From Eledone cirrhosa (taxonomy: Eukaryota): a DNA stretch of 48,554 nucleotides. The notes under the pieces are model-generated. The model saw only the letters and a program-made list of their open reading frames with translations, was not told the origin of the DNA and did not search any database. This document shows, one piece after another, positions 4,930-43,234 of the stretch; positions within the stretch are counted from its first letter, which is position 1, and every line of letters starts with the position of its first letter. The position numbers and the translations under genes are program-made. Location of the stretch: assembly GCA_964016885.1 (NCBI GenBank), contig CAXHJY010001210.1, positions 1 to 48,554 on the forward strand. Reading direction: 5' to 3'.

Positions 4930-5151
4930 ATATTTGGGGAGGGTCATATTTGCGTAATATTGCCAGAATTAATAACAGAACACACTCACTGTTTGGTTGG
5001 TTTTCGCTTCTCGCTGTCTTTTATATATATATATCTGCGATCTAACTTACTCGGTCCTCAATGTTGCCATTGACTGACCGGCGGTCAAAAATAATACAGA
5101 TACAATATAGACACAAACACATATATATAGTTTACATAATTTACATAAATC

Positions 5152-5179
5152 TTTCGTTGCACATCTGCAACATCGTCAG
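5152..5179 (-). ncRNA. Partial hammerhead motif in the PLE 1 pseudo-LTR (sense strand)
   Basis: CTGACGA t gttgca gatg tgcaac GAAA; stems I and III not evident; homologue at ~21765-21788. Confidence 0.5.
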
Positions 5180-5457
5180 TGGTGTTATATTCATTGTTCC
5201 TCCTGTTGTGTTGTATGTCTACGCCATTTTTTTTTTTTTTTTTCGTTCAGTCTGTCTATATATTTATTTATTTATTTGCTTGTTTGTTTATCTTATTTTA
5301 TTTTGTCTTCTTTGCGCATGCGTTTGCGTGTGTGTATAGTGTTATGTGTGATGTGTGACTAGTGTGTATAGTGTTGTGTCTGCTGGGTGACTAGTGTGTG
5401 TTTATGTGCTTGTGTATGTATTTATTTATCTTATTTTATTTAATTTTATTTACTTAT

Positions 5458-7872
5458 TTATACTTCTCTTAGGTCAGTGTTGTTTGTTTGGGTGTTGTTG
5501 TTGTTCCACTCATTCTTTCTGTTTAGCTTTGGTTTTCTAATTTCTATTTCACTGGCCTCTCTGATTTGCCTATCTGCTGGGTCATTCCTATGTTTAGATA
5601 TTATTCTAATTTCTATGTTGTCTATGTTACCGTCATGTTGTTGTCTAGCATGTTCGTATAGTACTGACCCGTTTTTTCGTCCTTTTAGTTCCCCCCAGTG
5701 TTGGTCTATCCTTTCACCTATGCTACGAACTGTCTCACCTATGTATGTTGTTGTCATGTTTCTGCAAGTACCCTCTGTACATCTTATGCTATAGACTACG
5801 TTTCTAGTTGTACAGTTTATCCGGGGGTTCACCTTACAAATGATACATTTCCTATTGGTACAGTGGGTTTTCTTAAAAGGGTAGGTTTTGCTGATCAGGG
5901 ATTTTATGGTGGTTCCTGGCTTTTCTACCACCTTTATTTTTAAGTGGGTCTTTCTCAGGGCCTTTCTACACTGGTTAGCTAATTTCCCTCCAGGGGTGGC
6001 GTCCACAAACATGACACTCTGATATCTCTGGTTGTCGTACCATGATGTGGCCTTCCCTATCTTATGTCTAGCCCTATCTAAGCTATTCCATGATTTGCTC
6101 CTGTATAGTGGGCAAATTCCTTTCATGTCCAGTTCTATGAGGGTCTTATACTTTTCCATGGCTCCTTCGTATACTCTGACTCTGTCTCTTTGGTTGTAGC
6201 CAGAGAACTGCATGCGGTTGATGAAGTGTTGGATGTGTCCTTCCATTTCTGTTGGGTCGCACATGCTGGACACATTCTTCATCATTCGTACCAAATCTGC
6301 GATCAGAATATTAAACTTAGCACTACTGGACATTGCTGAGTTTTTGAGTATCAGGTATTTGGAGGCCATGGGTTTAGCATAGTGTGAGTGGAGAATGTGG
6401 GCTCTCTCGTCTATAGTGTTAATCCAGAGTTCTGTGTCTAATACAGGTAGTCTATTGTTAGGGTGTTTGGAAGGGAAGTCTATAGTTACAGTTATACTCT
6501 GGTGTATGGAATTAGCTATCTGCTGGATGCTTTCCATCGTGCTACGTTCTAAATCAAACTTGTTAGTGCTCTCTAGTGGGGGTGTTCTTATAACTATATT
6601 GATATCGTCTACATAACGAGAGTACATGATGAGGTCTATGGAGCTTTCATTAAGGAGATCTTTAAGTCTCCTTTCCCACCATACCATGAAAAGGTTGGCA
6701 ATATCACCAGCTATGCTGACGCCGATGGCTGCTCCCTCATTTTGGGTGTAGATTTTCTCATTGAACTTAAATATGTGGCCCTTTAGGGTAGTTTTGATAC
6801 TAGCCCCTATTGCATGTGCGACCATTTTTCTTACCTGATCAGTGTTTTGGGGGGTCCGTATAGCTTTGGTCCACCCAATCCACCTTCCTATGGGAGTCTT
6901 TTTAGCCATTGAGGTTATGGTGGGGGGTCTACCTCTTATAGGTCTACTAGGGCAGAAACATCTAAGGTCATGGCTGTCTAGGTAGTCAGTGTCGTAGGTA
7001 AGTCTAAGTAGGAGGCCCAGTTCGTCTGTGTCGACGTCGCAGAACTCCACCTCACTCTCAATGATCATCTCCACACATCTTTTCACAGCAAAATCAATGT
7101 TAATGGATGGGTACAGTGACACCACATCCATGCTGCCTATTATGCAGTTGGATAGGCTCCTGTTTTTGTTGCACTCACTGATTCTGCTGAGGAGGTCCTC
7201 TGTACTTTCACATACATCTGGGGACATCTTGATTATGGGGCGTATAACCATTGAGAGGAAGTAGGAGATCCTGTAGTTGCTAGCTATATTAGCTCCGCAT
7301 ACGGGTCTTGTTGGTGGTCCTGTTGTCGGGTCGTCGACTGTCTTGTGGTCTTTGCGGAGCCCATACAAGGGTGGTATGCCATTGTTAGACGCCTGGAAGT
7401 TGTTGGCAGTGCGTCTGCTTGGCTTTAGGATGTCAGTCCACATCATCATGTGAGCGTTGAGGATTTTTTCTCTCCCATCGTGTGTTAGTTGTGCAACTTC
7501 GCTCGTGTTGGTGATGTGGGGTTGCATTGCCTCGATGTAGTTCGGCATGCTATCTATTGACATCCTACCAGACTTATCTGTGGGTAGACACACTACCTCA
7601 CCATCCCTTGTGCGCTGCTTGAGGCTAACCAAGCCTTCTACAGGTTTTATCCCAAGTTGTTGGGCCTCTGGTCTGCTCTGTCTCATAGTGTACCTGTCTA
7701 CTACTTGTCTAATGTTATTTCTAGCTATGGTGAACTGTGCCTCCGTCTCGTCATCTATTTGCTGTGGTATGCAAACTCTTTTATTAAAGGGTAACCTCGT
7801 AGGATAGATATTACCCATCTTATATGTTTTGTCCCCAAATATAACAATATCTGTTTCGACACACGATTTCAT
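5458..7872 (-). CDS. Penelope-like retroelement ORF: reverse transcriptase + C-terminal GIY-YIG endonuclease (804 aa, open; probably 5'-truncated; tentatively Naiad-like)
   Basis: RT motifs PTRPVCG, GSMDVVSLYPSI, QNEGAAIG, SRYVDD, LPVLD; Cys linker CTNRKCIIC; GIY-YIG VVYSIRC...TYIGETVRSIGERIDQH; C-terminal REASEI...PKLN. Confidence 0.95.
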   Translation of the reverse strand: MKSCVETDIVIFGDKTYKMGNIYPTRLPFNKRVCIPQQIDDETEAQFTIARNNIRQVVDRYTMRQSRPEAQQLGIKPVEGLVSLKQRTRDGEVVCLPTDKSGRMSIDSMPNYIEAMQPHITNTSEVAQLTHDGREKILNAHMMMWTDILKPSRRTANNFQASNNGIPPLYGLRKDHKTVDDPTTGPPTRPVCGANIASNYRISYFLSMVIRPIIKMSPDVCESTEDLLSRISECNKNRSLSNCIIGSMDVVSLYPSINIDFAVKRCVEMIIESEVEFCDVDTDELGLLLRLTYDTDYLDSHDLRCFCPSRPIRGRPPTITSMAKKTPIGRWIGWTKAIRTPQNTDQVRKMVAHAIGASIKTTLKGHIFKFNEKIYTQNEGAAIGVSIAGDIANLFMVWWERRLKDLLNESSIDLIMYSRYVDDINIVIRTPPLESTNKFDLERSTMESIQQIANSIHQSITVTIDFPSKHPNNRLPVLDTELWINTIDERAHILHSHYAKPMASKYLILKNSAMSSSAKFNILIADLVRMMKNVSSMCDPTEMEGHIQHFINRMQFSGYNQRDRVRVYEGAMEKYKTLIELDMKGICPLYRSKSWNSLDRARHKIGKATSWYDNQRYQSVMFVDATPGGKLANQCRKALRKTHLKIKVVEKPGTTIKSLISKTYPFKKTHCTNRKCIICKVNPRINCTTRNVVYSIRCTEGTCRNMTTTYIGETVRSIGERIDQHWGELKGRKNGSVLYEHARQQHDGNIDNIEIRIISKHRNDPADRQIREASEIEIRKPKLNRKNEWNNNNTQTNNTDLREV

Positions 7873-7904
7873 ATAAAAAACCTCGCAAAACTAATTCATC
7901 GCCG

Positions 7905-8296: not shown

Positions 8297-8739
8297 GTGT
8301 GTGTGTGTATGTGTGTGTGTGTGTGTGTGCGTGTAAATTAGTATTGGTGCTCCATCATAACGTTATGCATATATATATATATATATGTACATTTAACAAC
8401 TTTTCCCTATGAATTTTTTTAAGTTTGCGACCACCGTCACAAATCTTTAGTATCAGCAGTATCTCACTATTTTGCTTAATGAAATGTTTCTTTAGCCAAT
8501 GATTTCTGTTTCATTGATTTCATTTCTTGGTTTAACGATATTCTTTGTTCCAAGAATGATAGTTTTAAAGATGCAAGTTTGGTCTAAAAGTCCTGATCAA
8601 TCCAGTAACGTTACTTAACCATTGATTTCAGTTGAACAGAGGCTGGTACTTGATTGAAAACAGGTTATGTGACCCGATAATGTTAGTTGGTAAAAGTCTG
8701 AGGTTAGTCAAAAGCTGGGGATGGATACAATAAAGCTAC

Positions 8740-9290
8740 TTGATCCACGATGTTTGTTGATTAGACACTTATTCTTGATACAAAAACATTAGTTCGTCCT
8801 GGAAAGTTTGCTGGTACAATGTTGAGCAGAGATTAATTAACACAGTAACGTAGGCGAGTCACATGCTGGAGGCTGATGCAGTAAAATTTCCTTGATCCAC
8901 GATTTTAGTTTATCAGACTATGATCGTTGATACACAAACATTAGTTCATCCTGGAAAGTTTGCTGGTACAATGTTGAGCAGAGATTAATTAACACAGTAA
9001 CGTAGGCGAGTCACATGCTGGAGGCTGATGCAGTAAAATTTCCTTGATCCACGATTTTAGTTTATCAGACTATGATCGTTGATACAAAAACATTAGTTCA
9101 TCCTGGAAAGTTTGCTGGTACAATGTTGAGCAGAGATTAATTAACACCGTAACGTAGGCGAGTCACTTGCTGGAGGCTGATGCAGTAAAATTTCCTTGAT
9201 CCACGATTTTAGTTGATCAGACAATGATCCTTGATATGAATGCATAAATTGATCCTAAAACGTTAGGTGGTATAACATTGGCCTGATATT
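8740..9290. repeat. 152-bp tandem repeat, ~3.5 copies plus a degenerate upstream unit
   Basis: tgatccacga at 8741, 8893, 9045, 9197. Confidence 0.95.
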
Positions 9291-9745
9291 AATTAATTCA
9301 GTAAGGTTATTTCGATTAATGCTGATATCTGAACCGGTAGTGCTTCTTTAAAAGAAAGCTCACCAGAAACAAAATAATCAGTAAAAAATACAACAATAAC
9401 AACAACAATACTGCATATATGAAGCAACAAATAAAAAATAACACTAAGCGTTGCAGTTAAAACTACATCAATAACAGCAACAACAGCTGCACAAGGAGAG
9501 TGAATATAATTTATTGTGAGATATTTGAATATATAATAACAATACATATGATATAAGGAGAAAATATAAGCAGATATAAAATATTCACTAGTAAGAGAAA
9601 GTGAGAGAGGAGATGTGGAGAGAGAGAGAGAGAGGCGGGAGAGAGAGAGGGGGGAGAAAGTAGATAGATGGATAAGGAAGGACAGAGACAAACTTTCAAC
9701 GGCATGACTAAAAGTTATCTAAAGTTATGTGATCATATAAACGTA

Positions 9746-14113: not shown

Positions 14114-15511
14114 ATAACGAAGGAAGTGTTGAAAGGAACCAGGTGGACCATAACGCACCAGAGTACTCAATACTTAGGGTAGTAGAGTGGGTAATAGGAA
14201 AATGTTCAAGACCCTGACGGCAGAGCTCAAGCCGTTTCGACGGTTATTTCAGGACTAAAGTAGATTTTAGCGTGGTAATAAATAGCCGAACTTTTCCATA
14301 TATAGGAAGATTGTAGTTTTCAAAAGGGTTGGTCAAAATTTCTTGTAAACGCAATTAAATCATTCATGTCAATGGGTGGGGGCGGGGTTGTGGTGGCTGA
14401 ACTTGCCTGTAGAACAATGAGGATGTGGGTGGAGCCAATCAAGCGTTGAAAGTGAATTCTATAGACCAAATGCTAAGGAGTGTGGATGAAATTAGGCTAG
14501 CTAGAAAGCAGGCCAAAAAAGAATTCTGGAGAGATCTGAGAGTGAGAAGTTATAAAATTAAAAAATTAAAAAGTTAAGAAATTGGAATAAAAAAATTAAA
14601 AGATAATAAAAAAAAAAATGATATTATTAGCTGGTATTGCGTTTTCAGCCAATGCTATATAGAATTTACTGGGGTGGGGTACTGAAGCTACAAAATCCTG
14701 ATGAGAGTGGAAGGAAGTGAGAAGAAGAGATAAAGGGAGAAAAGAAAAGAAGTACATCTACCTATGTATGCTGGGGTTTCCCCTATCTTGTTCGGCAAGT
14801 GGGGAAAAGAAGGATGTTGCAGCCATTGTCTACCCACCTGGATCATGAGAGGGTTTGAGGGTGAGGTAAGTCATACGCAATCGGTGTTTACATGCGGTTA
14901 CAAGTTCGTCTTTTTTGTTTAGGAGTTGGTCCTTCGTAAACAGCATTTGTATTGTTTCCTCCGAGCATAAGTTACGGCGTCCTCCCGTGTAGAAGTTAGC
15001 ACTGGAAAGTAAGCTCCAAGTAAGATGGTATGTGATGTTATTATCTTGGAAGTCCCAGATGTGGCCCGAAAGTGTAGTGACATGTCGCCGGGCCGGGTTT
15101 CTGAACGTATGTCGGTGTTGGTAGAGCCGGGTCTTAAAGTCACAAGCGGTTAATCCGATATAGGCTTTGTTGGAGTTTTCTGTCCTCACGTTGCATAAGT
15201 AGATCACGTTACGTTCTCGGCATCTGGTGTTGAAGGGGCACGTAGATCTAACAGTGCAGTTACACCACCTGGTCGGCTCTCCACTGATGTCCAGGTTGTT
15301 CCTTCCATAGGAGTTGAGTTTCCCACCGCCATGAAAGACTTAATTGTGTTTACAAGAAATGTTGACCAATCCTTTTGACAACTACAATCTTCCCATATAT
15401 GAAATTACCCCTTGAAACGTTCGGGTATTTATTACCACGCTAAAAATCTAATTTAGTCCAGTAATATCCGTCGAATCGCTTCAGCTCTGCCGTCGGGGTC
15501 TTGAACATTTT

Positions 15512-15582: not shown

Positions 15583-15909
15583 AGAGAGAGAGAGAGATGT
15601 GAGACAAACCACAGACCGTCCATCTCAACTGTACTTTTGAAAAGCAGAAGAACTGCGAAACCTGTAAAGGAACCAAATAAATATATATATATTTAAAAAA
15701 AAACTCCTGTTGCATTTTCAATTTCATCTTTTTTCCTAATACATTCACTCGTGTAGGACACCTCGGTTATCTTTCATTTTGTAAAAAAAACCTCAGTTTC
15801 TAATATATATATATATATATAGGAAAAGTAAATAACAGCAACAACGAGTACAGTTACGAAAGGTGTTAGGTATTAGGTTCACGCTTGAGAGTGGGGGCGG
15901 GGTTTCGAT

Positions 15910-15937
15910 GACGTTTCGGGCACAATCCCTTCATCAG
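15910..15937 (-). ncRNA. Hammerhead core without an evident stem I
   Basis: Reverse complement: CTGATGA agggattgtgccc GAAAC GTC; stem II ggg/ccc; stem III ACGT. Confidence 0.55.
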
Positions 15938-16005
15938 GAGACAGGTAAGGAAATGGGAACGAAGTCAAGAGGTTGGTCACGGCGAATGGGATCGGGGTTA
16001 TATAC

Positions 16006-16408
<403 letters not shown>

Positions 16409-20889: not shown

Positions 20890-21563
20890 TTAGGGAGAAG
20901 TGTTTAGACGGGGTCCGTATTTGTTAATGAAGTAAGATTCCTTGCTGATGCGCTGGGTGTGGGTGGCATTATCTTTAAATTTGTAGAGGGGAAAGATTCT
21001 GAAGTTGGGATGATTTTGGGCGGCGCAGGTATCAATGTGTTCACTCAGTTGTATTTTCCTGTATTCCCGTATTTTAATTTGGGATCTATGGACAGTCATG
21101 CGTTGGCGGAGGCTGTTTTTGGTCTGGCCTATGTATTGTTCTCGACAACCTGAACAAGTTAATACATATATTAAATTTTCCGATGCACATGTGAAATTGT
21201 GTTTTACTATAAAACGTTGTCCATCTTTGAAATAGAATTCCGAACCCTCTATTAGGTTGATGCAAATGCCACAGTTGGGTCTATCGCATTTTTTTACTGT
21301 GGGTTTCGTTGTTGTGGTTGGCAGTACTTTGGCATGTGTTAAGATGTTTTTCATTGACTTGGATTGTCTTTTGCTCTTTATGATATCGTGTGTTCGTAGA
21401 ATTTGGTTCATTCTATGGTCCTTTTTCAATACAGGGATGTTCTGGAGGATGGTGTCAAAGGCCTCGTTGTTGAGGGGGTTGTGTGTGGAGATGTATGGAA
21501 GAGCTTTTAGTTTTGGTTGATTTACTTTAGGGTGTCTAAGGTCCTGGGCACTGAGTTTTAGGG
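20890..21563 (-). pseudogene. PLE linker + GIY-YIG endonuclease fragment (Neptune-like), 5'-truncated at a (TA)n
   Basis: CDRPNCGIC linker; FTCASENLIYVLTCSGCREQYIGQT...LRQRMTVHR...SEH...ESYFINKY.P.LN. The listed ORF's N-terminus (21564-21714) reads through (TA)n into pseudo-LTR sequence and is probably spurious. Confidence 0.88.
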
Positions 21564-21576
21564 CATATATATATAT

Positions 21577-21830
21577 ATTGTTATACTTGGGGAGGGTCAT
21601 ATTGTTGTTATAATATTGCCAGAAGTAATAACAGAACACATTCACTGTTTGGTTTGGGTTGGTTCTCGCTTCTGTATGTTTTATATCTCCATAGTTAATT
21701 TTTTTGATAAACATTGATACAGATTTAAATATATATATATATATAGTCTATCAAAGTCCATTCGTCACGCATCTGCGACATCATCAGTGGTACTATTATG
21801 TTTCTTCCCATTGTATTTTAATGTCTACGC
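21577..21830 (-). mobile_element. Solo pseudo-LTR related to the 3' end of PLE 1
   Basis: attgttata.ttggggagggtcatatt...aataacagaacac and catctgc.acatc.tcagtgg...atgtctacgcca match 4924-5226. Confidence 0.8.
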
Positions 21831-23990: not shown

Positions 23991-24662
23991 TTCTTCTATA
24001 TCTCTTTCTCACTTCCATTTCCTCACTCGTCATACTTCTCTGGAAGAAATTTGCTGTATTTAGACCAAGTTTAAAAAAAGCCTAGAAAAACCGTATGTCC
24101 ATACAGCGCCCCAAAGATTCACTAAGGAGTTACGGGACTAGGCATGTATGAATATAGTCGATCAATCGGCTAACAATAGCAGCCAAATACCTCTCAAAAA
24201 TTCGTGTCTGTAAATATCCTGCAGACGGCGTGGTATAATATATATATCGTGTAGACAAAAGTATATAGCATATATATCCTGGTAGACTGTAGTATTATAA
24301 TGTAAAATATTGCAGTAGACTGTACAATACATTACCAAGCATTATAATGTAGATATCTCAAACTATTGTGTAAATTGTAAACCACACACTATAAGATATG
24401 TGTCCCGGTAAACTACAATCATATATACAGGGAAAGGGTGAAGTTTTCAAGGGCATTATCTTTGTCCGTTCCCTTGTCATTTCAATTTGGATTGCCTCGG
24501 GAACGTAACCTTATTATGTAAGAAGCTGTCTGATGAGAACACCGTACTGCGTACGCGGAATCACGTGGCCACTGTCATCATTGAAATATGAATCACATCC
24601 ATATCAATAAAGAACTTTAACATCTGAAACTACTTCGCATTTTCTTATTATATATTTATATA

Positions 24663-24702
<40 letters not shown>

Positions 24703-24887
24703 TATATATGTATACGTACAGTAATATGTATATATATACATACATGCACACATATATATATATGTACGTATGGGTTTACCGAACATTTATTATAATGTTC
24801 GGTTTGTTTGTAAACAAACAGCCCGAATTACGCCGCACAGTGTTCAGGCAACTATCGTCGCCTTTTTGTTCAACACTGACACATGAA

Positions 24888-24928
24888 CGATGTACTAGTT
24901 TCAAGCTTATTAGCTATCGTCAGCATTG
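24888..24928 (-). ncRNA. Minimal type I hammerhead ribozyme (PLE type)
   Basis: Reverse complement: caatg CTGACGA tagctaataagctt GAAA ctag TA catcg; stem II agct/agct; palindromic stem III ACTAGT; stem I atg/cat. Confidence 0.75.
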
Positions 24929-25218
24929 TATACCTTCCTGTCAGATGATTGAACGTCTGAAAGTATATACTTTCCTTATGCATATTAACGGCTGAGCAGC
25001 CTAATTTGCATATCGAGTGAGTTAGTCGGCCGGGCGCACTGAAAACGATAAATGGAAAAGAATGAAACGAAATTTCATTTCTCACTCTTAGTACGGCTGA
25101 TACCTAAATATAAGTATGTATGTATACGTACATACATATATGTATACATACATACTTACATTTATGTATCAGCCGTACTAAGAGTGAGAAATGAAATTTC
25201 GTTTCATTCCTTTCTATT

Positions 25219-25249
<31 letters not shown>

Positions 25250-25252
25250 ATA

Positions 25253-25369
<117 letters not shown>

Positions 25370-25729
25370 CCCGGTAAGCCACACACTATTGAGTAAATTT
25401 TAAAACACATGCTGTAGTGTATACATCCTGTTAAACCACATTCTACAGTGTATACTACAAAATAATGTGTATATATCCCGATAAATTACACGCTATGGTG
25501 TAAATGGTAAAGCCCATACTATAGTGTATATTGTATATGACACGCTATAGTATATATCCCCTGGTAAATTGCACACTATAGTGTAAATAGTAATTCATAT
25601 ACGATAGTGTAAATTGTATACCACACGCTATAGTGTATATCTCCCGATAGATTACACGTTATAGTGTATCTCTTCCAACAAACCACACGTTTTAGTGTAT
25701 ATCTTCCGTTAGACCACAGACAATAGTAT

Positions 25730-27812
25730 GTCCTACAATAGTGATAGCTGCGATAGTATATATGTCCTACAATAGTGATAGCTGCAATAGCATGTCTTAC
25801 AATAATGATAGCTGCAATAGTATATATGTCCTACAATAGTGATAGCTGCAATAGCATGTCTTACAATAGTGATAGCTGCAATAGTATGTCCTACAATAGT
25901 GATAGCTGCAATAGTATGTCCTACAATAGTGATAGCTGCAATAGTATGTCCTACAATAGTGATAGCTGCAATAGTATGTCCTACAATAATGATAGCTGCA
26001 ATAATATGTCCTACAATAGTGATAGCTGCAATAGTGTGTCCTACAATAGTGATAGCTGCAATAGTATGTCCCACTATAGTGATAGCTGCAATAGTGTGTC
26101 CTACAATAGTGATAGCTGCAATAGTATGTCCTACAATAATGATAGCTGCAATAATATGTCCTACAATAGTGATAGCTGCAATAGTATGTCCTACAATAGT
26201 GATAGCTGCAATAGTATATGTCCCACTATAGTGATAGCTGCAATAGTATGTCCTACAATAGTGATAGCTGCAATAGTATGTCCTACAATAGTGATAGCTG
26301 CAATAGTATGTCCTACAATAGTGATAGCTGCAATAGTATGTCCTACAATAGTGATAGCTGCAATAGTATGTCCCACTATAGTGATAGCTGCAATAGTATG
26401 TCCTACAATAGTGATAGCTGCAATAGTATGTCCTACAATAGTGATAGCTGCAATAGTATGTCCTACAATAGTGATAGCTGCAATAGTATATGTCCCACTA
26501 TAGTGATAGCTGCAATAGTATGTCCTACAATAGTGATAGCTGCAATAGTATATGTCCCACTATAGTGATAGCTGCAATAGTGTGTCCTACAATAGTGATA
26601 GCTGCAATAGTATATGTCCCACTATAGTGATAGCTGCAATAGTATGTCCTACAATAGTGATAGCTGCAATAGTATATATGTCCTACAATAGTGATAGCTG
26701 CAATAGTATATGTCCCACTATAGTGATAGCTGCAATAGTATGTCCCACAATAATGATAGCTGCAATAGTATATATGTCCTACAATAGTGATAGCTGCAAT
26801 AGTATGTCCTACAATAATGATAGCTGCAATAGTATATATGTCCTACAATAGTGATAGCTGCAATAGTATGTCCCACAATAATGATAGCTGCAATAGTATA
26901 TATGTCCTACAATAGTGATAGCTGCAATAGTATGTCCTACAATAGTGATAGCTGCAATAGTATATATGTCCTACAATAGTGATAGCTGCAATAGTATGTC
27001 CTACAATAGTGATAGCTGCAATAGTATGTCCTACAATAGTGATAGCTGCAATAGTATGTCCTACAATAGTGATAGCTGCAATAGTATGTCCTACAATAGT
27101 GATAGCTGCAATAGTATGTCCTACAATAGTGATAGCTGCAATAATATGTCCTACAATAGTGATAGCTGCAATAGTATGTCCTACAATAGTGATAGCTGCA
27201 ATAGTATGTCCCACTATAGTGATAGCTGCAATAGTATATGTCCCACTATAGTGATAGCTGCAATAGTGTGTCCCACAATAATGATAGCTGCAATAGTATA
27301 TATGTCCTACAATAGTGATAGCTGCAATAATATGTCCTACAATAGTGATAGCTGCAATAGTATGTCCTACAATAGTGATAGCTGCAATAGTATGTCCCAC
27401 TATAGTGATAGCTGCAATAGTATATGTCCCACTATAGTGATAGCTGCAATAGTATGTCCCACAATAATGATAGCTGCAATAGTATATATGTCCTACAATA
27501 GTGATAGCTGCAATAGTATGTCCTACAATAGTGATAGCTGCAATAGTATGTCCTACAATAGTGATAGCTGCAATAGTATGTCCTACAATAGTGATAGCTG
27601 CAATAATATGTCCTACAATAGTGATAGCTGCAATAATATGTCCTACAATAGTGATAGCTGCAATAGTGTGTCCTACAATAGTGATAGCTGCAATAGTATA
27701 TGTCCCACAATAGTGATAGCTGCATTAGTATGTCCCACAATAGTGATAGCTGCAATAGTATGTCCTACAATAGTGATAGCTGCAATAGTATGTCCCACTA
27801 TAGTGATAGCTG
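25730..27812. repeat. 30-bp minisatellite (~68 units), consensus tcctacaatagtgatagctgcaatagtatg
   Basis: Directly visible; 32/34-bp variants add TA; variant start tcccactatagtg. Confidence 0.98.
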
Positions 27813-28491: not shown

Positions 28492-28920
28492 GGGGTTTAA
28501 ACGCTGAATGATATCGTTTTTCCATGTTTCTAAGTAATATAATAGTTGACTCTATTATGATGTAACACATCAGATACTGCTGGATGGTCTCGTATGTTCG
28601 GTGTGTGTTTTATCATCGTTTTACCGACTGTCTGTCTGTGTATCTGTCTGTCAGTCTGTCAGTCTGTCAGACTGTCTGTATGTCTGTCTGTCAGTCTGTC
28701 TGCCTGTCAGTCTGTCTGTCTGTCTGTCGTTGATAGTAGAAGTCTTACACATCGGCTCTTCGATTTTGAATCTTTACTTGGTTATTTGTGAGTGTATTAT
28801 TTAAATTGTTTTACTGTTGTTGACTCTAACCCCTCGTCTGGGACTGTAGACGTAGGGTAAATATATTTTCGCTCCTTTTGGGGTGAAAAAATATTTAATT
28901 CAAAATGTTTATCTATATCG

Positions 28921-30720
28921 TTGAAAACGAGGAAGCCATATTGTAAGCTAACGCCACGCCCACCAAAAAAAAAAAGCGAGAAAGAGGGAACAACAATTCA
29001 AACTGTTGAACAACCCCTCCTCTCGAATGGAAAAAACACTATTAATTCGAGTGAAAACCTAAATTTTGAAGAAAAAAATAACAAGGAAATAAACACCACA
29101 AAAGATGAAACCAACAACATTGCAACAACAAGCAACAATAAACGAGGCGAAAGCAACAAAGACAAAAAAGTTTATTTTGCCCAAACGGTCAGGAAAGCTA
29201 TCGAGTACAAGCCCATAGACATTACAAACGCTAAGCAGAACTTGCTAAATGCCAGAAAATACGTATCTTTTGGGGAGGATGGTTCTTTTACGATCAACTC
29301 CCCAGAAGAAGTTCGTCAACAGGTATATAGGAATACCATAACCTTCAGGACTATATCCAACGCAACAAGAAAGCCAGCTCAATTGACAGAAAGTCAAATT
29401 GAGCTGGTGCTGAAAGACATAAAAAAAGACATACTCTTTATTGAAAGAGGAAAGTTGTATGTCAACATTATGGTCCGAATGAAGGACGAAATGCTGGCTT
29501 AAAAATGCTCGGTGGCACCTATAGTGTCACCACAATACACCTTCTTCCCCACGTATAAAGGAAGAAGGACACAAAGACTAAGAATGTGGAGCTCAACGCC
29601 AGAAGTAAACATCTGGTCCGTCCTGACAGGATTTACGGACCTAGAAAAGGACATCCTAATATCAGCAGGGGAGTCCACCAGTGGACTGTTCGGGGGGAAA
29701 AGTCTGGAGGTTCTCTTACAGATGACACCTGAGAGAATCGCCGGAATACCCGACCGAGTCCTACTAGATGGTCGAACCTTTATTAATATTACGGTGGAAG
29801 GCAGGAGGCCCTCATGTTACCACTGCGCTGGCAGAGGTCACCTGAAGACTGCCTGCCCTCTACTAACAGCAAAAAAACCACTGCTACAAACACCACAACA
29901 ACAAAAACAACCAGCACCACCACCACAAAAACAACAAAATACACTACCATCACAACCACAACGACAACAAAAACCAACAACACCACCTCCAGCACCACCA
30001 CCACCACAACAACAGCTCAAGAAAACAACCCAAAACACGGTCCCACCCAGTCCCTCCCCACAGAACACAAATACAAAAACACACGCAGTGCATACACAAC
30101 CTGGAAATATACCCCTCCCCTCCAATACGGAAGAGGAGCTCATATCCTCGGACGACGAGGGGGCTCCCTTCCAAAAAGTCAAAAGGAAAAAACGTACACG
30201 CACCACACAAACAAAAATAACCCCACCTGACAACACAACACAGACAACAAAACGCAAGCTCACGCAAGAACAACAAGCAAAAACAAACACAACAACACAA
30301 AAACTCTACACATACATAAACAAAAACAATAAAAACTTAACAAAAAAAATAGACAACAACCCTTCGGTACAAACCGAAGGGCCGAATTTTGCAATGGCAA
30401 TGGGACTCCCTAACCTGAAAATGGTGAAAGTCCCAATTGACATTTTCAAAACATTGAAAAACATTTACCCTGAGGACGTGGGGCCACCCTGCACCAGGCC
30501 ACTCAACAGCGTCCTCCTGAAAGGTTTTCCCCTCCTCTCCTCAAACACCCACACAATTCCAAACCCCCCAACCCCTCCACACACTAATACCCCCCCCCCC
30601 CCCTCCCACAACCCCCCACCCAACAACCCCTCCACCACCCCCATGGAAACTGAGCAGCCCGGACCCCGGAACGAGAGAGGTAAGTGCCTCTTTCTTTTAC
30701 CACCAACATGGCTGTGTTAA
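28921..30720 (+). pseudogene. LINE ORF1 (nucleic-acid binding, zinc knuckle) with one in-frame stop
   Basis: 28921-29502 and 29512-30720 are in the same frame, split by TAA at 29500; VEGRRPSCYHCAGRGHLKTACP knuckle; Pro/Gln/Thr-rich tail; basic KVKRKKR. Confidence 0.85.
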
Positions 30721-33700
30721 GGGTAGGTTGTCTAAATGCGCGTGGCCTGGGCTCACCTTGGAAGCAAGCTAAACTTCTAAATGATCTCAGGTCACAATGT
30801 TTAAATGTGATGGTTATTTGCGAGGCCCGGATCAGCAGCGTGCGGCAACTAGCCCCCACCTTTGATGACTTTGAGATGCACGCATCTCTCTGTCAGCCCG
30901 GGGGTGGGGGTGGGGTTGTCGTTCTGCTGCAAAAACATCTAGGTCTCGCTACACAGACAGTACACTTGGACCCGGAGGGTCGACTCGTGGTTCTGGACCT
31001 TGGCAGTGGTGAAGGCGAAGCTTTTATGCTTGTCGCCGTATACGCTCCTTTTGGGGCAATGCGGTCGGACTTCTTCCATCGTCTGGAGACTTTTCTAGGG
31101 ACGTCCAGCTCCTTGCTTTTAGTGGGGGACTGGAATGGTATCCTAGATGCACGTTGGGACTATGTAGGGGCATGTCCCGATAGAGGGGGGTGTAACAGCC
31201 TCAAGGGGTTAATCGGCCGATTTGACCTGGCCGATAGATATCGACTAGATTTTCCGACTGTGCCAACCTGGACTTGGTCAAATAACAGTGGTCAATCTAG
31301 ATCGTACCTAGATAAGTTCTTAGTTACAATTAAGGATAGGAACTTTTTAAGTTGTCCAGAAATGCTCATGGTGGGCTATTCAGACCACAAGTTAGTGACC
31401 TGCGTAGTCCACCTTGATAGAACGCATAGGCAGGGACCCGGTTACTGGAAGCTCAACTTGTCCTTACCGGCAAGTAGAGCTTACAGGGACCGGATTAGAA
31501 CCTTAGTTAAGGAGCGGTTGACGGGCGCCATCGTCAACAGCAGGTGGCGGGGCTCTCTAAAAAGAGAGATTAGAGTAGTTTCAATAGGAGTTAGTAATGA
31601 GTTAGCCTCAGATACAAATAGGAAGGAAAGGGAGTTGGTAGTTAATGTTGAAGAGGCAATGAGAAGCGGTAACGTGGCCAGAGTGCAAGCGTCGAAAACG
31701 GCCTTGAACCAGTTCTTCGACGCGAAACACGAAGGCTGCGTTGTCCGAAGCAAAATACGTGCTCTGGGAAACGAGGGGACCAAAGCTGTTAGCTGGGCCC
31801 GCGTGACAGAAGCGAAAAGTGGGATTAGATCCACTATCCGGTCTTTGCGAGACCAGGATGGACGGGTGATCCTTGAACCTAAGCAAATGTGCGAGGCCTT
31901 TCAAAGACACATTGCCCGATTGTTCAGGAGGGGCGGGGGGCCGGTTGGAGATGTGGATTTCGGTCCATACCTCAACGGCCAGCCGCGTCTTTCGGACAAG
32001 GAGGCGATCTCAGCTGCGACGGGCCGATCTCAGCTGCTGAAATAGGGGACGTGCTGAGCCTATGCGGCAAACGCAAATCTCCAGGGCTCGATGGTCTGCC
32101 CTATGAACTATATATTAATATGCCGGACTTGTTCCCCGATCTCCTCGAGGCGGTCTACTACAACTGGCAACAGAACGGGAGAATTCCCTGTTCTGTGGCC
32201 AAGGGCGTAGTCTCGCTAGTGAGGAAGAACGAGAACAAGGGGGATGACATTAGTAATTTTAGGCCCATAACTCTGCTAAATGCAGAGTTAAAGATTTTGG
32301 CCAAGGTGTTAGCGAAGAGGTTGGCGCTTGTCGTGGTGGGCCTGGTGGGAGATGCGCAGACATGCGCTATCCCGTCCAGGTCCATCCACGACAACCTCCA
32401 CCTCATGCGATACATCATAGAGAGGGTTGGGAATGAACCCGGCTTTGGTGGGGCCCTGATAAATTTAGATCAGTCTAAAGCGTTCGATGGTTACCTGGAT
32501 GCGGTGCTAGCGGCGGCTGGTTTCGGACCCGTTTTCAGGGGCTGGATCACTGCCATGCACAGCAGCCGCATCTGCTCTAGAGTCAAGGTGAACGGCTACC
32601 TCTCGGAGCCGTTCGAAATCACCCGCTCCATCCGACAGGGGTGCCCTCTCTCCTCCCTTCTGTATGTATTGGCTCTCGAGCCACTACTGCGGAAGTTGGA
32701 GTTGTTGCAGGGCATCCCTTTGGAACCGGGATTGCGCAAAGTGGTGTCGGCCTACGCCGATGACGTAACAGTAATGGTGTCGACCACCGCGGAAATAGAG
32801 GCAATGGGCATCTTACTGGAGGAGTACGAAAGGTTGACAGGGGCTAAGCTGAACCGGGACAAGTCAGTCGCTTTGCAACTCGGCGACTGGAGGGGCAAAG
32901 CGATGTTGTCCAACGGTATCGTCGGACGGTGGACGGAGAGCCCGGTGAAGTTGCTTGGGGTCTGGTTCGGACCGGACCTCCAGGTGGAGAAAAACTGGGG
33001 TGAGGTAACGAATAGGGTGTTTGCACTGACCCAGAAGTGGGCCGAGTGCAAACTATCCCTGAAAGGTCGGGCGGAGTTGGCGAACTCTTACATAGCGTCC
33101 GTCATCTATTACCGCTTGACTGTCGTGCCTTGCCCGGGTGAGATCCTCGCCAAAATGGAGCGCGCCCTCTTTTATTTCCTTTGGAAGAAGAGGTCTCCTC
33201 TGGTGAGGAGATCTATCTGCTGTCAGCACCGATTGAAAGGAGGGCTGGGGATGCCGTGGCTAAAAATGCGTAAACACGCATTGAGGCTAAGGCACCTCCA
33301 GGTATTCCTCACCAGTCAACCGGTGTGGGCCCCGTTTGTGAGGCGAGCCTTGCCGAGGCTCGTCTCGCTCACCGAGCTGCAGTCCTGGGTGAAGCAAAGA
33401 CCGAGAAAACTGGGCGACTGGCACACCGAGTGTGCCCAGGCGCTCACGGCTCTCTGGCAGGCGGACCCGGCTATCGATGGAGACTCCACCTCGTCATTCT
33501 ATAGAGGGCTGGTGGTTAGCAGGTGCGACGACGCCCTCGGAGAAACCCTAGGCATGGAGGAGGACGAACTGGCTATTCGGTAGGACTTTCGGGCCGGGAC
33601 CTATGGACAACTTCCAGAAGTCCTTGGCCTGGCAGTGCTACCGAGGGGCTCTGCCCGTTCGGGATAAGCTCTACAGACACGGGCGCCCGGGTAGGGAGCC

Positions 33701-34130
33701 CTCGAAAAAGATCTGTCCGAAATGCGTGCGCGACGAGGAAACCGTTGTGCACGCATTGGTGCACTGCCCGGGCGTTGCCGATCTGTGGGGCTATGTCGAA
33801 CAACTGCTGTCACGGGTGGGACCAATTAGGTTGACCACCGAGTCCATTGTAACGATCAAGCCGCCTCCTCCCTTCAAAAATGAAGGAGAGGCGGTCTTCC
33901 TCTGTGTAATAGCCTTGGTAAAATAGGTTATATGGTGGACGCGTCTGAAAGGGCTGAGGTCGGACACCTTTCTTTCCGGCCAACAACTGGTCCTTTTCTT
34001 CCGATACCATTTCGGAAGAAGGATCAGGATGGAGAGAGAGGTGCTCCACTCCAGCCAGTTTTATGAAAGGTGGGTGAAAGTTGCGAGAATGGCCCGTGTG
34101 AATGGGCCTTCTCTCTACCTCAGCCTGTAG
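30708..34130 (+). pseudogene. LINE ORF2 (AP endonuclease + reverse transcriptase + Cys-rich C-terminus), disrupted
   Basis: ATG at 30708; APE motifs LNARGL, VYAP, GDWN, SYLD, SDH; RT motifs KSPGLDG, FRPITLLN, DQSKAFD, RQGCPLS, YADD; C-terminal CPKC..ETVVHALVHC. Frameshifts at ~32010 and ~33580, stop at 33924, frame continues to TAG 34128-34130. Confidence 0.93.
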
Positions 34131-42365: not shown

Positions 42366-42404
<39 letters not shown>

Positions 42405-42483
42405 GAGAAGAACAGAACAAACAAATATTAAACAATTCCTTAAAAAAATTAAAAAATGATTTAAATATCTACCTGTTCATAAT

Positions 42484-42563
42484 GCTATTACCGTCGGTTT
42501 CGCTTTACAAAAGATTAGAAATTCAGAGAATTTCTAACGGAAAAGTAAAGTTCATCAGATAGC
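42484..42563 (-). ncRNA. Type I hammerhead ribozyme (mirror copy in the other palindrome arm)
   Basis: Reverse complement reads gctatCTGATGAactttac...gtaaagcGAAAccgacggTAatagc. Confidence 0.8.
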
Positions 42564-42923
42564 TATTTCCACTCTATAAGATAAAGTCCCACAGTCTGCA
42601 AATATACTGCAACTACCAGCTCGTATGAGTTATGGCCGTTAAAGAGTCCCACACATGAACTGGCCACTAATAAAAGCGGGAATATTACAGACGCGCTGCT
42701 GGCTTTGGTGTTATAAAAAAAAGCAGTAATCTATGTAGAGAAAAAAATTCGTTGTTGTTTACTGCTATTTTTTTAGCACCAAAGCCAGCAGCGCGTCTGT
42801 AATATTCCCGCTTTTATTAGTGGTCAGTTCACGTGTGGGTCTCTTTAACGACCATAACTCATACGAGCTGGTAGTTGCACTATATTTGCAGACTGTGGGA
42901 CTTTATCCTAGAGAGTGGAAATA

Positions 42924-43003
42924 GCTATCTGATGAACTTTACTTTTCCGTTAGAAATTCTCTGAATTTCTAATCTTTTGTAAAAGGAAACCGACGGTAAT
43001 AGC
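42924..43003 (+). ncRNA. Type I hammerhead ribozyme
   Basis: gctat CTGATGA [long stem II with ttagaaattc/gaatttctaa hairpin] GAAA ccgacgg TA atagc; stem I gctat/atagc; predicted cut after GUA at 42998. Confidence 0.8.
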
Positions 43004-43234
43004 ATTATGAACAGGTAGATATTTAAATCATTTTTTAATTTTTTTAAGGAATTGTTTAATATTTGTTTGTTCTGCTCATCTCAATTTTTATAGTTCTGGT
43101 ATCTCAAATTAGTACCATCGAACAACAATTACATTATAGACACCCTATATATCTCTATGCGTACTTAGTACCTAGAGAGATATTTACCTTATTTTATATA
43201 TATATATATATGTATATATATGTATATATATATG

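Follow-up and report, generated by a model that had tools for sequence, protein, structure and literature searches.

What kind of element carries a hammerhead ribozyme motif into a short, non-coding stretch of Eledone cirrhosa DNA between two TA microsatellites, and by which machinery did it arrive there? We addressed this question for a locus on contig CAXHJY010001210.1, using the whole stretch of 48,554 nt (in the following called the window), which consists of microsatellite-rich animal DNA with several retroelement remains. From our analysis, the locus is probably a solitary, partly decayed copy of a non-coding 412-bp repeat that occurs in high copy number and carries a canonical type I hammerhead motif. 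The repeat is likely akin to the non-LTR retrozymes, and this copy was likely put into a (TA)n tract by the reverse transcriptase (RT) and GIY-YIG nuclease of a Penelope-like element (PLE).

Layout of the insertion and its boundaries

The preliminary description of this DNA had placed a TA-flanked insert of ~450 bp at 24765-25219. The (TA)n microsatellite is present at both ends, but the left boundary lies at 24697, giving an insertion of 525 bp (Table 1). The ~170-bp palindrome previously placed at 25050-25219 is real and extends slightly further, to 174 bp at 25048-25221, with 7 of its 87 pairs mismatched, three of them central. The lack of an ORF was also borne out, the longest ATG frames on the circularised 412-bp unit being 37 and 95 aa, and translation of the unit yielded no frame for RT and GIY-YIG nuclease in the insertion, as an autonomous PLE would have. 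Inverted repeats at both termini of 24765-25219 were not found.

Table 1 Features of the insertion and its flanks, in window coordinates.
Feature	Position	Strand	Remarks
Left (TA)n flank, presumed target	24649..24696		
Whole insertion, 525 bp	24697..25221	-	1.06 direct units and an inverted copy of 87 nt; putative boundaries, set by the direct repeat and the palindrome end
24-nt direct repeat	24697..24720	-	Begins the next terminal segment; putative proximal 3′ end, without the 61-nt tail
One 412-bp unit period, 37% GC, non-coding	24721..25132	-	
TA/TG/TAC microsatellite linker within the unit	24721..24764	-	
Two neighbouring stem-loops, 6 and 10 bp, the first AC-rich	24772..24824	-	Downstream of the hammerhead; predicted
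Extended helix I with internal loop (loop 1) around the hammerhead	24868..24954	-	Predicted; U at position 1.7 is 24886
Type I hammerhead	24887..24929	-	Helix I 6 bp, core, helix II 4 bp with AAUA loop over U·U, palindromic stem III
Hairpin with octamer ATGCAAAT (25011-25004)	24977..25012	-	Predicted
Left palindrome arm	25048..25134	-	Final 87 nt of an upstream 5′-truncated unit, pLTR-like
61-nt tail	25048-25108	-	25048 is the putative distal 3′ end
Right palindrome arm	25135..25221	+	Inverted 5′-truncated copy finishing at the distal 3′ end
Right (TA)n flank, presumed target	25222..25313		

The period of the unit follows from the segment 24697-24720, which is identical to 25109-25132 at 23 of 24 positions. 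This repeated segment is low-complexity sequence; its next-best match in the window outside the palindrome has 4 mismatches, a value that none of 38 microsatellite control tiles surpassed. Read along the hammerhead strand, the insertion starts after (TA)n with the inverted 87-nt copy (25221-25135), followed by the last 87 nt of an upstream unit (25134-25048). Then come the unit itself, with the hammerhead, the two stem-loops and the microsatellite linker, the repeated 24-nt start of the terminal segment, and again (TA)n. Both outer ends are therefore 3′ ends, and their lengths differ by 61 nt.

PLE insertions are described as 5′-truncated partial tandems, often with an adjoining inverted truncated copy, with a tail of 30-40 bp at one end and with a preference for microsatellite, (TA)n targets (PMC8557442, Craig et al.; PMC8969392, Goubert et al.). 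The copy studied here combines a partial tandem with an adjoining inverted 5′-truncated copy in just this way, while its one-sided extension of 61 nt, with a proximal end known from this copy alone, exceeds the published 30-40 bp. Because it is arranged as PLE insertions are, the copy was likely spread by Penelope-like enzymes. It had been suggested that the insert ends in a hairpin. However, relative to the hammerhead strand the palindrome sits on the 5′ side, and an inverted truncated copy is the reading that suits it best; as the layout corresponds to the published PLE footprint, the hairpin is probably an integration scar and not an RNA terminus.

Folded as a circle, the 412-nt unit reached -118.9, compared with -86.7 ± 5.3 for 60 shuffles (z = -6.1), with predicted long-range helices that span both junctions, one of which is strengthened by the family letters at 24836 and 24831. 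The stability of this predicted circular fold speaks for structure, not for circularity. Upstream of the hammerhead, one predicted hairpin displays an octamer that is linked with snRNA-type promoters. As an enriched signal the octamer was dropped, with 5 occurrences in the window against 4.1 expected by chance, and a promoter role of the octamer hairpin may be taken as a lead only. At 24997-24947 on the minus strand, also upstream of the hammerhead, lie two stretches ~40 nt apart that we take to be loosely A-box-like and B-box-like. No tRNA gene was called.

Copies of the repeat in sequencing runs

A search with 24765-25110 as query listed 22 sequencing runs, of which 19 contained part of it, under 16 organism labels in 15 studies; half or more of the query words occurred in three runs. 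None of the runs listed is on record as RNA. For four of the 22 runs, from four organisms, contigs were aligned to 24745-25134 at 80% likeness, yielding 10,249 contigs on the repeat in run X1, which may be the source sample, 54 in X5, 4,449 in X6 and 9 in X7. A further 12 rows, with a share below 0.2, were excluded from the evidence. When the summed depth, which is itself no copy number, was divided by the depth of long unique pieces and by 31 for the overlap of words, a rough minimum of about 5,000 copies resulted for X1 and of about 180 for X6. X6 has its own majority letters at many places, so that the family is carried by at least two organisms. The clear carriers are X1 and X6, and X5 and X7 could be low-copy carriers or mixed samples. 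The locus is thus not the single-copy sequence without core conservation that the preliminary description had named as grounds for abandoning its reading; the family is abundant and, as expected of a non-LTR retrozyme, present in multiple genomic copies.

These contigs also bear on the ends of the unit. In 63 X1 contigs (TA)n stands directly before 25048, and pieces that bridge the junction 25047/25048 with 31 or more letters per side were found in 1 of 8 listed pieces of X1, 2 of 8 of X5, 5 of 8 of X6 and 0 of 8 of X7. Position 25048 is hence an end in some copies and a head-to-tail junction in others. The segment 25109-25134 is family sequence and not a flank specific to this copy. Among the listed joints, beyond which there are another 34 joints and 513 loose ends, those between opposite strands at 25116-25133 in X6 point to inverted arrangements in other copies as well. 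In these alignments the stretch 24745-24776 was skipped as repeat, which makes the linker junction unreadable in other copies. The full footprint comes from one copy. An array with two hammerheads was seen neither at this locus nor in the short contigs, in which the linker is skipped. Pattern scans for the motif returned 0 matches in metagenome contigs, on two occasions, and 0 in viral contigs.

The hammerhead motif and its class

On the minus strand, the core reads CUGACGA at 24923-24917, GAAA at 24902-24899 and U16.1/A17 at 24894/24893, in agreement with the CUGANGA, GAAA and UH boxes of canonical metazoan type I hammerheads, and the cut is predicted between 24893 and 24892. Stem III (24899-24894) is the self-complementary ACUAGU, with a duplex energy of -4.8 kcal/mol. 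A perfect core and this stem III had been noted before; both are confirmed, with "perfect" holding for the core only. The motif (24923-24893) is the sole match of the type I descriptor, which found no second hammerhead nearby or elsewhere in the window. Among 100 locally shuffled windows, any descriptor match occurred in 4 and one with a palindromic stem III in 1. Rfam gave no hammerhead match, neither at the gathering score nor at E ≤ 10, and its matches to miRNA families, all below gathering scores, were discarded as a mere reflection of the long hairpin.

In the canonical animal type I hammerhead, helix I has 6 bp, helix II has 4 bp, and helix III is short and palindromic and requires a tandem partner, whereas in the minimal form of PLEs (min-HHR) helix II is longer (7-8 bp), helix I shorter (4-5 bp) and loop 1 poorly defined, as in the S. 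mansoni families, with the pair G10.1-C11.1 (PMC4209133, Cervera and de la Peña 2014). The preliminary description had called the motif a minimal PLE hammerhead. With a helix II of 4 bp and a helix I of 6 bp with a looped extension, it instead corresponds to the canonical retrozyme type as defined there; the long helix II and short helix I of a min-HHR are absent, and helix III comprises 1-2 bp with a palindromic loop. The 6 bp of helix I apply with the majority letter at 24927, as this copy forms 5 of the 6 pairs and has an A·C mismatch at 24927/24889. At the base of helix II, U·U (or an extra U and A-U with a bulge) takes the place of G10.1-C11.1. A U·U at this position is also found in the axolotl retrozyme hammerhead HHR_Amex2, reported with 22% cleavage as a monomer and better cleavage as a dimer (PMC7229834). 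Judged by its sequence, the motif fits the canonical animal type I hammerhead apart from this precedented U·U. The line between canonical and PLE hammerheads is not sharp, because some PLE variants carry a 6-nt palindromic helix III: short palindromic helices III are given for the PLE hammerheads of shrimp, fly and Oikopleura, of 6 nt in shrimp and Oikopleura, and some listed PLE variants have a 4-bp helix II (PMC4209133).

The contact between loops 1 and 2 of hammerheads is described as one of U1.7 with the terminal A of loop 2 (PMC11875169). Both U1.7 and the tetraloop-terminal A are present here, and U1.7 is also able to pair in the predicted fold. For this copy, a fold other than the catalytic one is predicted to dominate (pair probability of helix I 0.01-0.04). 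Since the window holds no partner hammerhead, this copy is unable to form a hammerhead dimer in cis. An unconstrained cofold of two copies gave no dimer-hammerhead fold, which is evidence neither way because folding programs do not score the core. With one hammerhead and two helix-I lesions, this copy is predicted to be inactive or weak. The previous reading of a dimer-type type I hammerhead tied to Penelope-like elements is supported, with the proviso that this copy has no partner in the window.

Variation among copies was assessed from 40 listed variant rows, with a further 75 beyond these; all row counts refer to the 40. None of them falls within 24885-24918, and the sole row in the core affects the free position 7 of CUGANGA (24919), which differs in 82% of the X6 depth. 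For the absence of rows we obtained P = 0.23 with the core alone, which is not significant, and P = 0.024 with the core and helices II and III, and the blocks 24777-24820, 24984-25024 and 25061-25094 are equally invariant among the listed rows. With the majority letter at 24927 (98.6% in X1, 100% in X5 and X7, 61% in X6), helix I is complete at 6 bp, and with that at 24884 (94-100% in all four runs) the next stem closes, so that together they turn the two helix-I mismatches of this copy into G-C. At 24926 the commonest X1 letter (56%) produces a U·U mismatch in helix I.

Placed on the predicted fold, 17 of the 40 rows fall at unpaired positions and 9 leave a pair intact. Wobbles become Watson-Crick pairs in 3 rows and mismatches become pairs in 2, and pairs are broken in the remaining 9, compared with 14.8 breaks expected (P = 0.015). 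This P is optimistic, because two registers of helix I were set by hand after the table had been viewed and the rows are linked. The deficit of pair breaks therefore gives modest support to the predicted fold, and no two-sided compensatory change occurred among the listed rows.

Origin of the insertion and relation to known elements

Experimental work on the anole PLE protein shows it to cut AT-rich DNA on both strands and to extend both, starting at two internal sites of the RNA, which define the tail; the anole PLE hammerhead is protein-assisted and dispensable for insertion in vitro (PMC11167929, Frangieh et al.). A comparable route is the simplest account of the present locus. A circular or more than unit-length RNA of the hammerhead strand would be bound by a PLE protein, whose nuclease would cut both strands of a TA tract, and both cut ends would prime reverse transcription, at two preferred RNA sites separated by 61 nt. 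Of the resulting cDNAs, the proximal one would span one unit and ~87 nt and the distal one would halt after 87 nt. Both would halt in the self-complementary microsatellite linker and join head to head, leaving the palindrome. The hammerhead would act in copies of at least two units, where ACUAGU segments may pair between units and cleavage after GUA would release 412-nt monomers, possibly then circularised. Regarding such cleavage, 8 of 9 predicted Xenopus retrozyme dimers are reported not to have cleaved (bioRxiv 10.64898/2026.07.22.740005). We infer the enzyme, the form of the template and the joining step from an arrangement that can be read directly in the DNA.

The closest likeness is with the non-LTR retrozymes of coral, mussel and axolotl (PMC7229834; Li, Clavereau & Pollet 2026 preprint). 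These have a non-coding unit of 150-450 bp with a GC content below 50% (here 412 bp and 37%), a canonical type I hammerhead with a weak palindromic helix III, strong self-pairing and very many copies; PLEs occur in the same genomes, and the U·U under helix II is that of HHR_Amex2. In contrast to them, the locus is a solo copy of 1.06 units with one hammerhead and not a tandem array, and it combines a tail on one side and (TA)n at its ends with an inverted truncated copy, features that we did not find described for retrozymes in the accessible text of these sources. We file the unit as retrozyme-like and not as a proven member, because the tandem arrangement with two hammerheads is missing at this locus and a circular RNA is putative. 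As it stands, the locus resembles a monomer copy of a non-LTR retrozyme.

PLEs with a C-terminal GIY-YIG domain, of the Neptune/Nematis type (PMC8557442), and with pLTR hammerheads (PMC4209133) share with it the partial tandem, the adjoining inverted 5′-truncated copy, the tail at one end, the TA microsatellite targets and a hammerhead upstream of the 3′ end. They differ in encoding RT and endonuclease, in a tail of 30-40 instead of 61 nt and in a min-HHR instead of a canonical hammerhead. Non-autonomous PLEs of the Chlamys group such as MRC1 (PMC8557442) are likewise described with pLTRs and head-to-tail insertions made by the PLE machinery, but belong to green algae, mostly lack hammerheads and have 3′ sequence in common with their autonomous partners. 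Short repeats with type I hammerheads are also known as newt satellite 2 and schistosome Sm-alpha (PMC2220036, PMC6155905), the former with an internal snRNA-type promoter, compared with an octamer of putative promoter role here.

A PLE frame also exists in the window. At 5458-7890 on the minus strand, a frame of 810 aa has a weak RVT_1 match and, by reading of its translation, a CX4CX2C linker and a GIY-YIG-type C-terminus; its 5′ side is cut by (TA)n. Its best relative is a protein of Octopus vulgaris with 70% identity, the next among the 120 listed reaching at most 55%. On this one named relative an octopod host is probable, whereas a second protein search named no mollusc. In its 3′ UTR (5035-5190, minus strand) lies a second hammerhead core at 5179, about 110 nt from a (TA)n end; its helix II has 6 bp, an extra U is present and helix I is weak. 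The corresponding distances from the cut site to the two 3′ ends of our insertion are 196 and 257 nt. This neighbouring PLE with its own hammerhead shows that such machinery has acted in this genome. A search for a parent PLE had been proposed earlier. Within the window, no partner or parent sharing pLTR sequence with the unit was found, and the unit has no similarity to the 3′ UTR of the neighbouring PLE (score 28, with shuffles reaching up to 33).

An autonomous PLE might nevertheless have left the stretch as its 5′-truncated 3′ end (pLTR), in which case there would be no non-autonomous unit. Such remains are common, as most PLE hammerheads are single motifs from truncated elements, and the PLEs of shrimp, fly and Oikopleura mentioned above share the short palindromic helix III (PMC4209133). 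The PLE 3′ UTRs in the window are microsatellite-rich, and a parent joined via the microsatellite linker would escape short contigs. We regard this origin as unlikely, since the unit closes on itself in 412 bp without an ORF, its helix sizes are canonical and not those of a min-HHR, depth shows no drop in the direction of the 5′ part up to 25108, and 0% of the X1 contigs run into unlike sequence. The possibility that the hammerhead is a non-functional relic passed on by descent, or a match that a structured repeat yields by chance, appears more remote still, and we consider it very improbable. It would agree with the missing Rfam match, the U·U at 10.1/11.1, the disfavoured catalytic fold of this copy and a conservation that is not confined to the motif; yet such a motif appeared in only 1 of 100 shuffled windows, the one core position that differs in X6 is the free position 7, and the majority letters complete helix I.

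The palindrome could also be a fixed terminal hairpin of an element of ~450 bp, or an independent fold-back element to which a hammerhead SINE became fused; a LINE or a DNA transposase would have moved it, and the 24-nt repeat would be due to chance or to an ordinary target-site duplication. Long target-site duplications are possible in animal retrozymes (PMC7229834). The 24-nt repeat exceeds the microsatellite background and 25109-25134 is family sequence, which argues against this view. The (TA)n junction at 25048 in the 63 contigs would suit a fixed hairpin end equally well, the opposite-strand joints in X6 would be compatible with one, and a Tx1-like LINE is present in the window. However, the depth of the arms is ~1.0-1.2 times that of the hammerhead in X1 and X6 and not twice as high (a weak argument, as depth is not linear), two minority letters (25058, 25100) are common to both arms, as if one had been copied from the other in this lineage, and there is neither a tRNA head nor a pair of inverted repeats at the termini of 24765-25219. 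In sum of these points, a fixed hairpin seems improbable to us. Helitron/HINE and MITE readings were set aside, as a CTRR end is lacking and the ends share no inverted repeats, whether terminal or subterminal, features by which these families are recognised.

Taking the locus as a retrozyme-like copy inserted by PLE enzymes, it adds to a connection that has been proposed before. Mobilisation of animal retrozymes by PLEs was suggested from shared hammerheads, co-occurrence and pLTR relatedness, with the means of movement called open (bioRxiv 10.64898/2026.07.22.740005; PMC7229834). Li et al. regard retrozymes as non-autonomous derivatives of PLEs, on the grounds of co-occurrence and related pLTRs, and describe many monomer copies (bioRxiv 10.64898/2026.07.22.740005). 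An ORF-less, canonical retrozyme-like unit with a PLE integration footprint would tie retrozymes to PLEs by mechanism, and this link can be checked over thousands of copies in one assembly. The class itself is known, and this copy is probably dead. We found no octopus or other cephalopod retrozyme in the literature searched. In the accessible text of the O. vulgaris repeat annotation, the recently active families include 31 Penelope-like ones and 893 of the "unclassified SINE" kind, and ribozymes are left unmentioned (PMC13282606). The present unit also suggests that, among the many short repeats still unclassified in octopus genomes, some may depend on PLEs and bear ribozymes. Repbase, Dfam or the TE library of O. 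vulgaris may already contain the repeat, entered as a Penelope derivative or an unclassified SINE.

A more far-reaching view, which we put forward tentatively as possible without favouring it, is that of a new cephalopod retrozyme family with thousands of copies in several species. Its dispersed copies would routinely bear the complete PLE integration signature, consisting of two RT start sites 61 nt apart, copying of more than one unit and an inverted second cDNA joined at the microsatellite. If true, the structure of such copies would give direct evidence that PLE proteins mobilise the hammerhead retrozymes of animals in trans, starting from circular or multimeric RNA, and the unit would offer a minimal 412-nt substrate for testing how inverted and tailed PLE insertions form.

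Several other elements lie in the window. A second palindrome at 42401-43086 has arms of 319 nt with 96% identity; its left arm begins at (TA)n, its right arm runs ~110 nt further to (TA)n (~43195), likewise a one-sided-tail pattern, and the arms contain CUGAUGA and GAAA boxes without helices I and II. Of two PLE-like fragments on the minus strand, that at 20890-21747 has a GIY-YIG match and that at 14830-15339 has none, and downstream of neither was a hammerhead found. A short frame at 15836-16264 on the plus strand, after an (AAT)n tract and without a Pfam match, presumably resembles the C-terminal end of a restriction-type LINE nuclease. The Tx1-like LINE (28861-33926, plus strand) is broken and encodes endonuclease, RT and zf-RVT, with 50-55% identity to assembly proteins. 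Upstream of the PLE, a 152-bp tandem repeat (8739-9304, 3.3 copies, 95%) shows on its minus strand near-core boxes with a G8-type change, which do not match the descriptor. A 30-bp minisatellite of 68 copies (25721-27812), apparently unrelated, starts 500 bp from the insertion.
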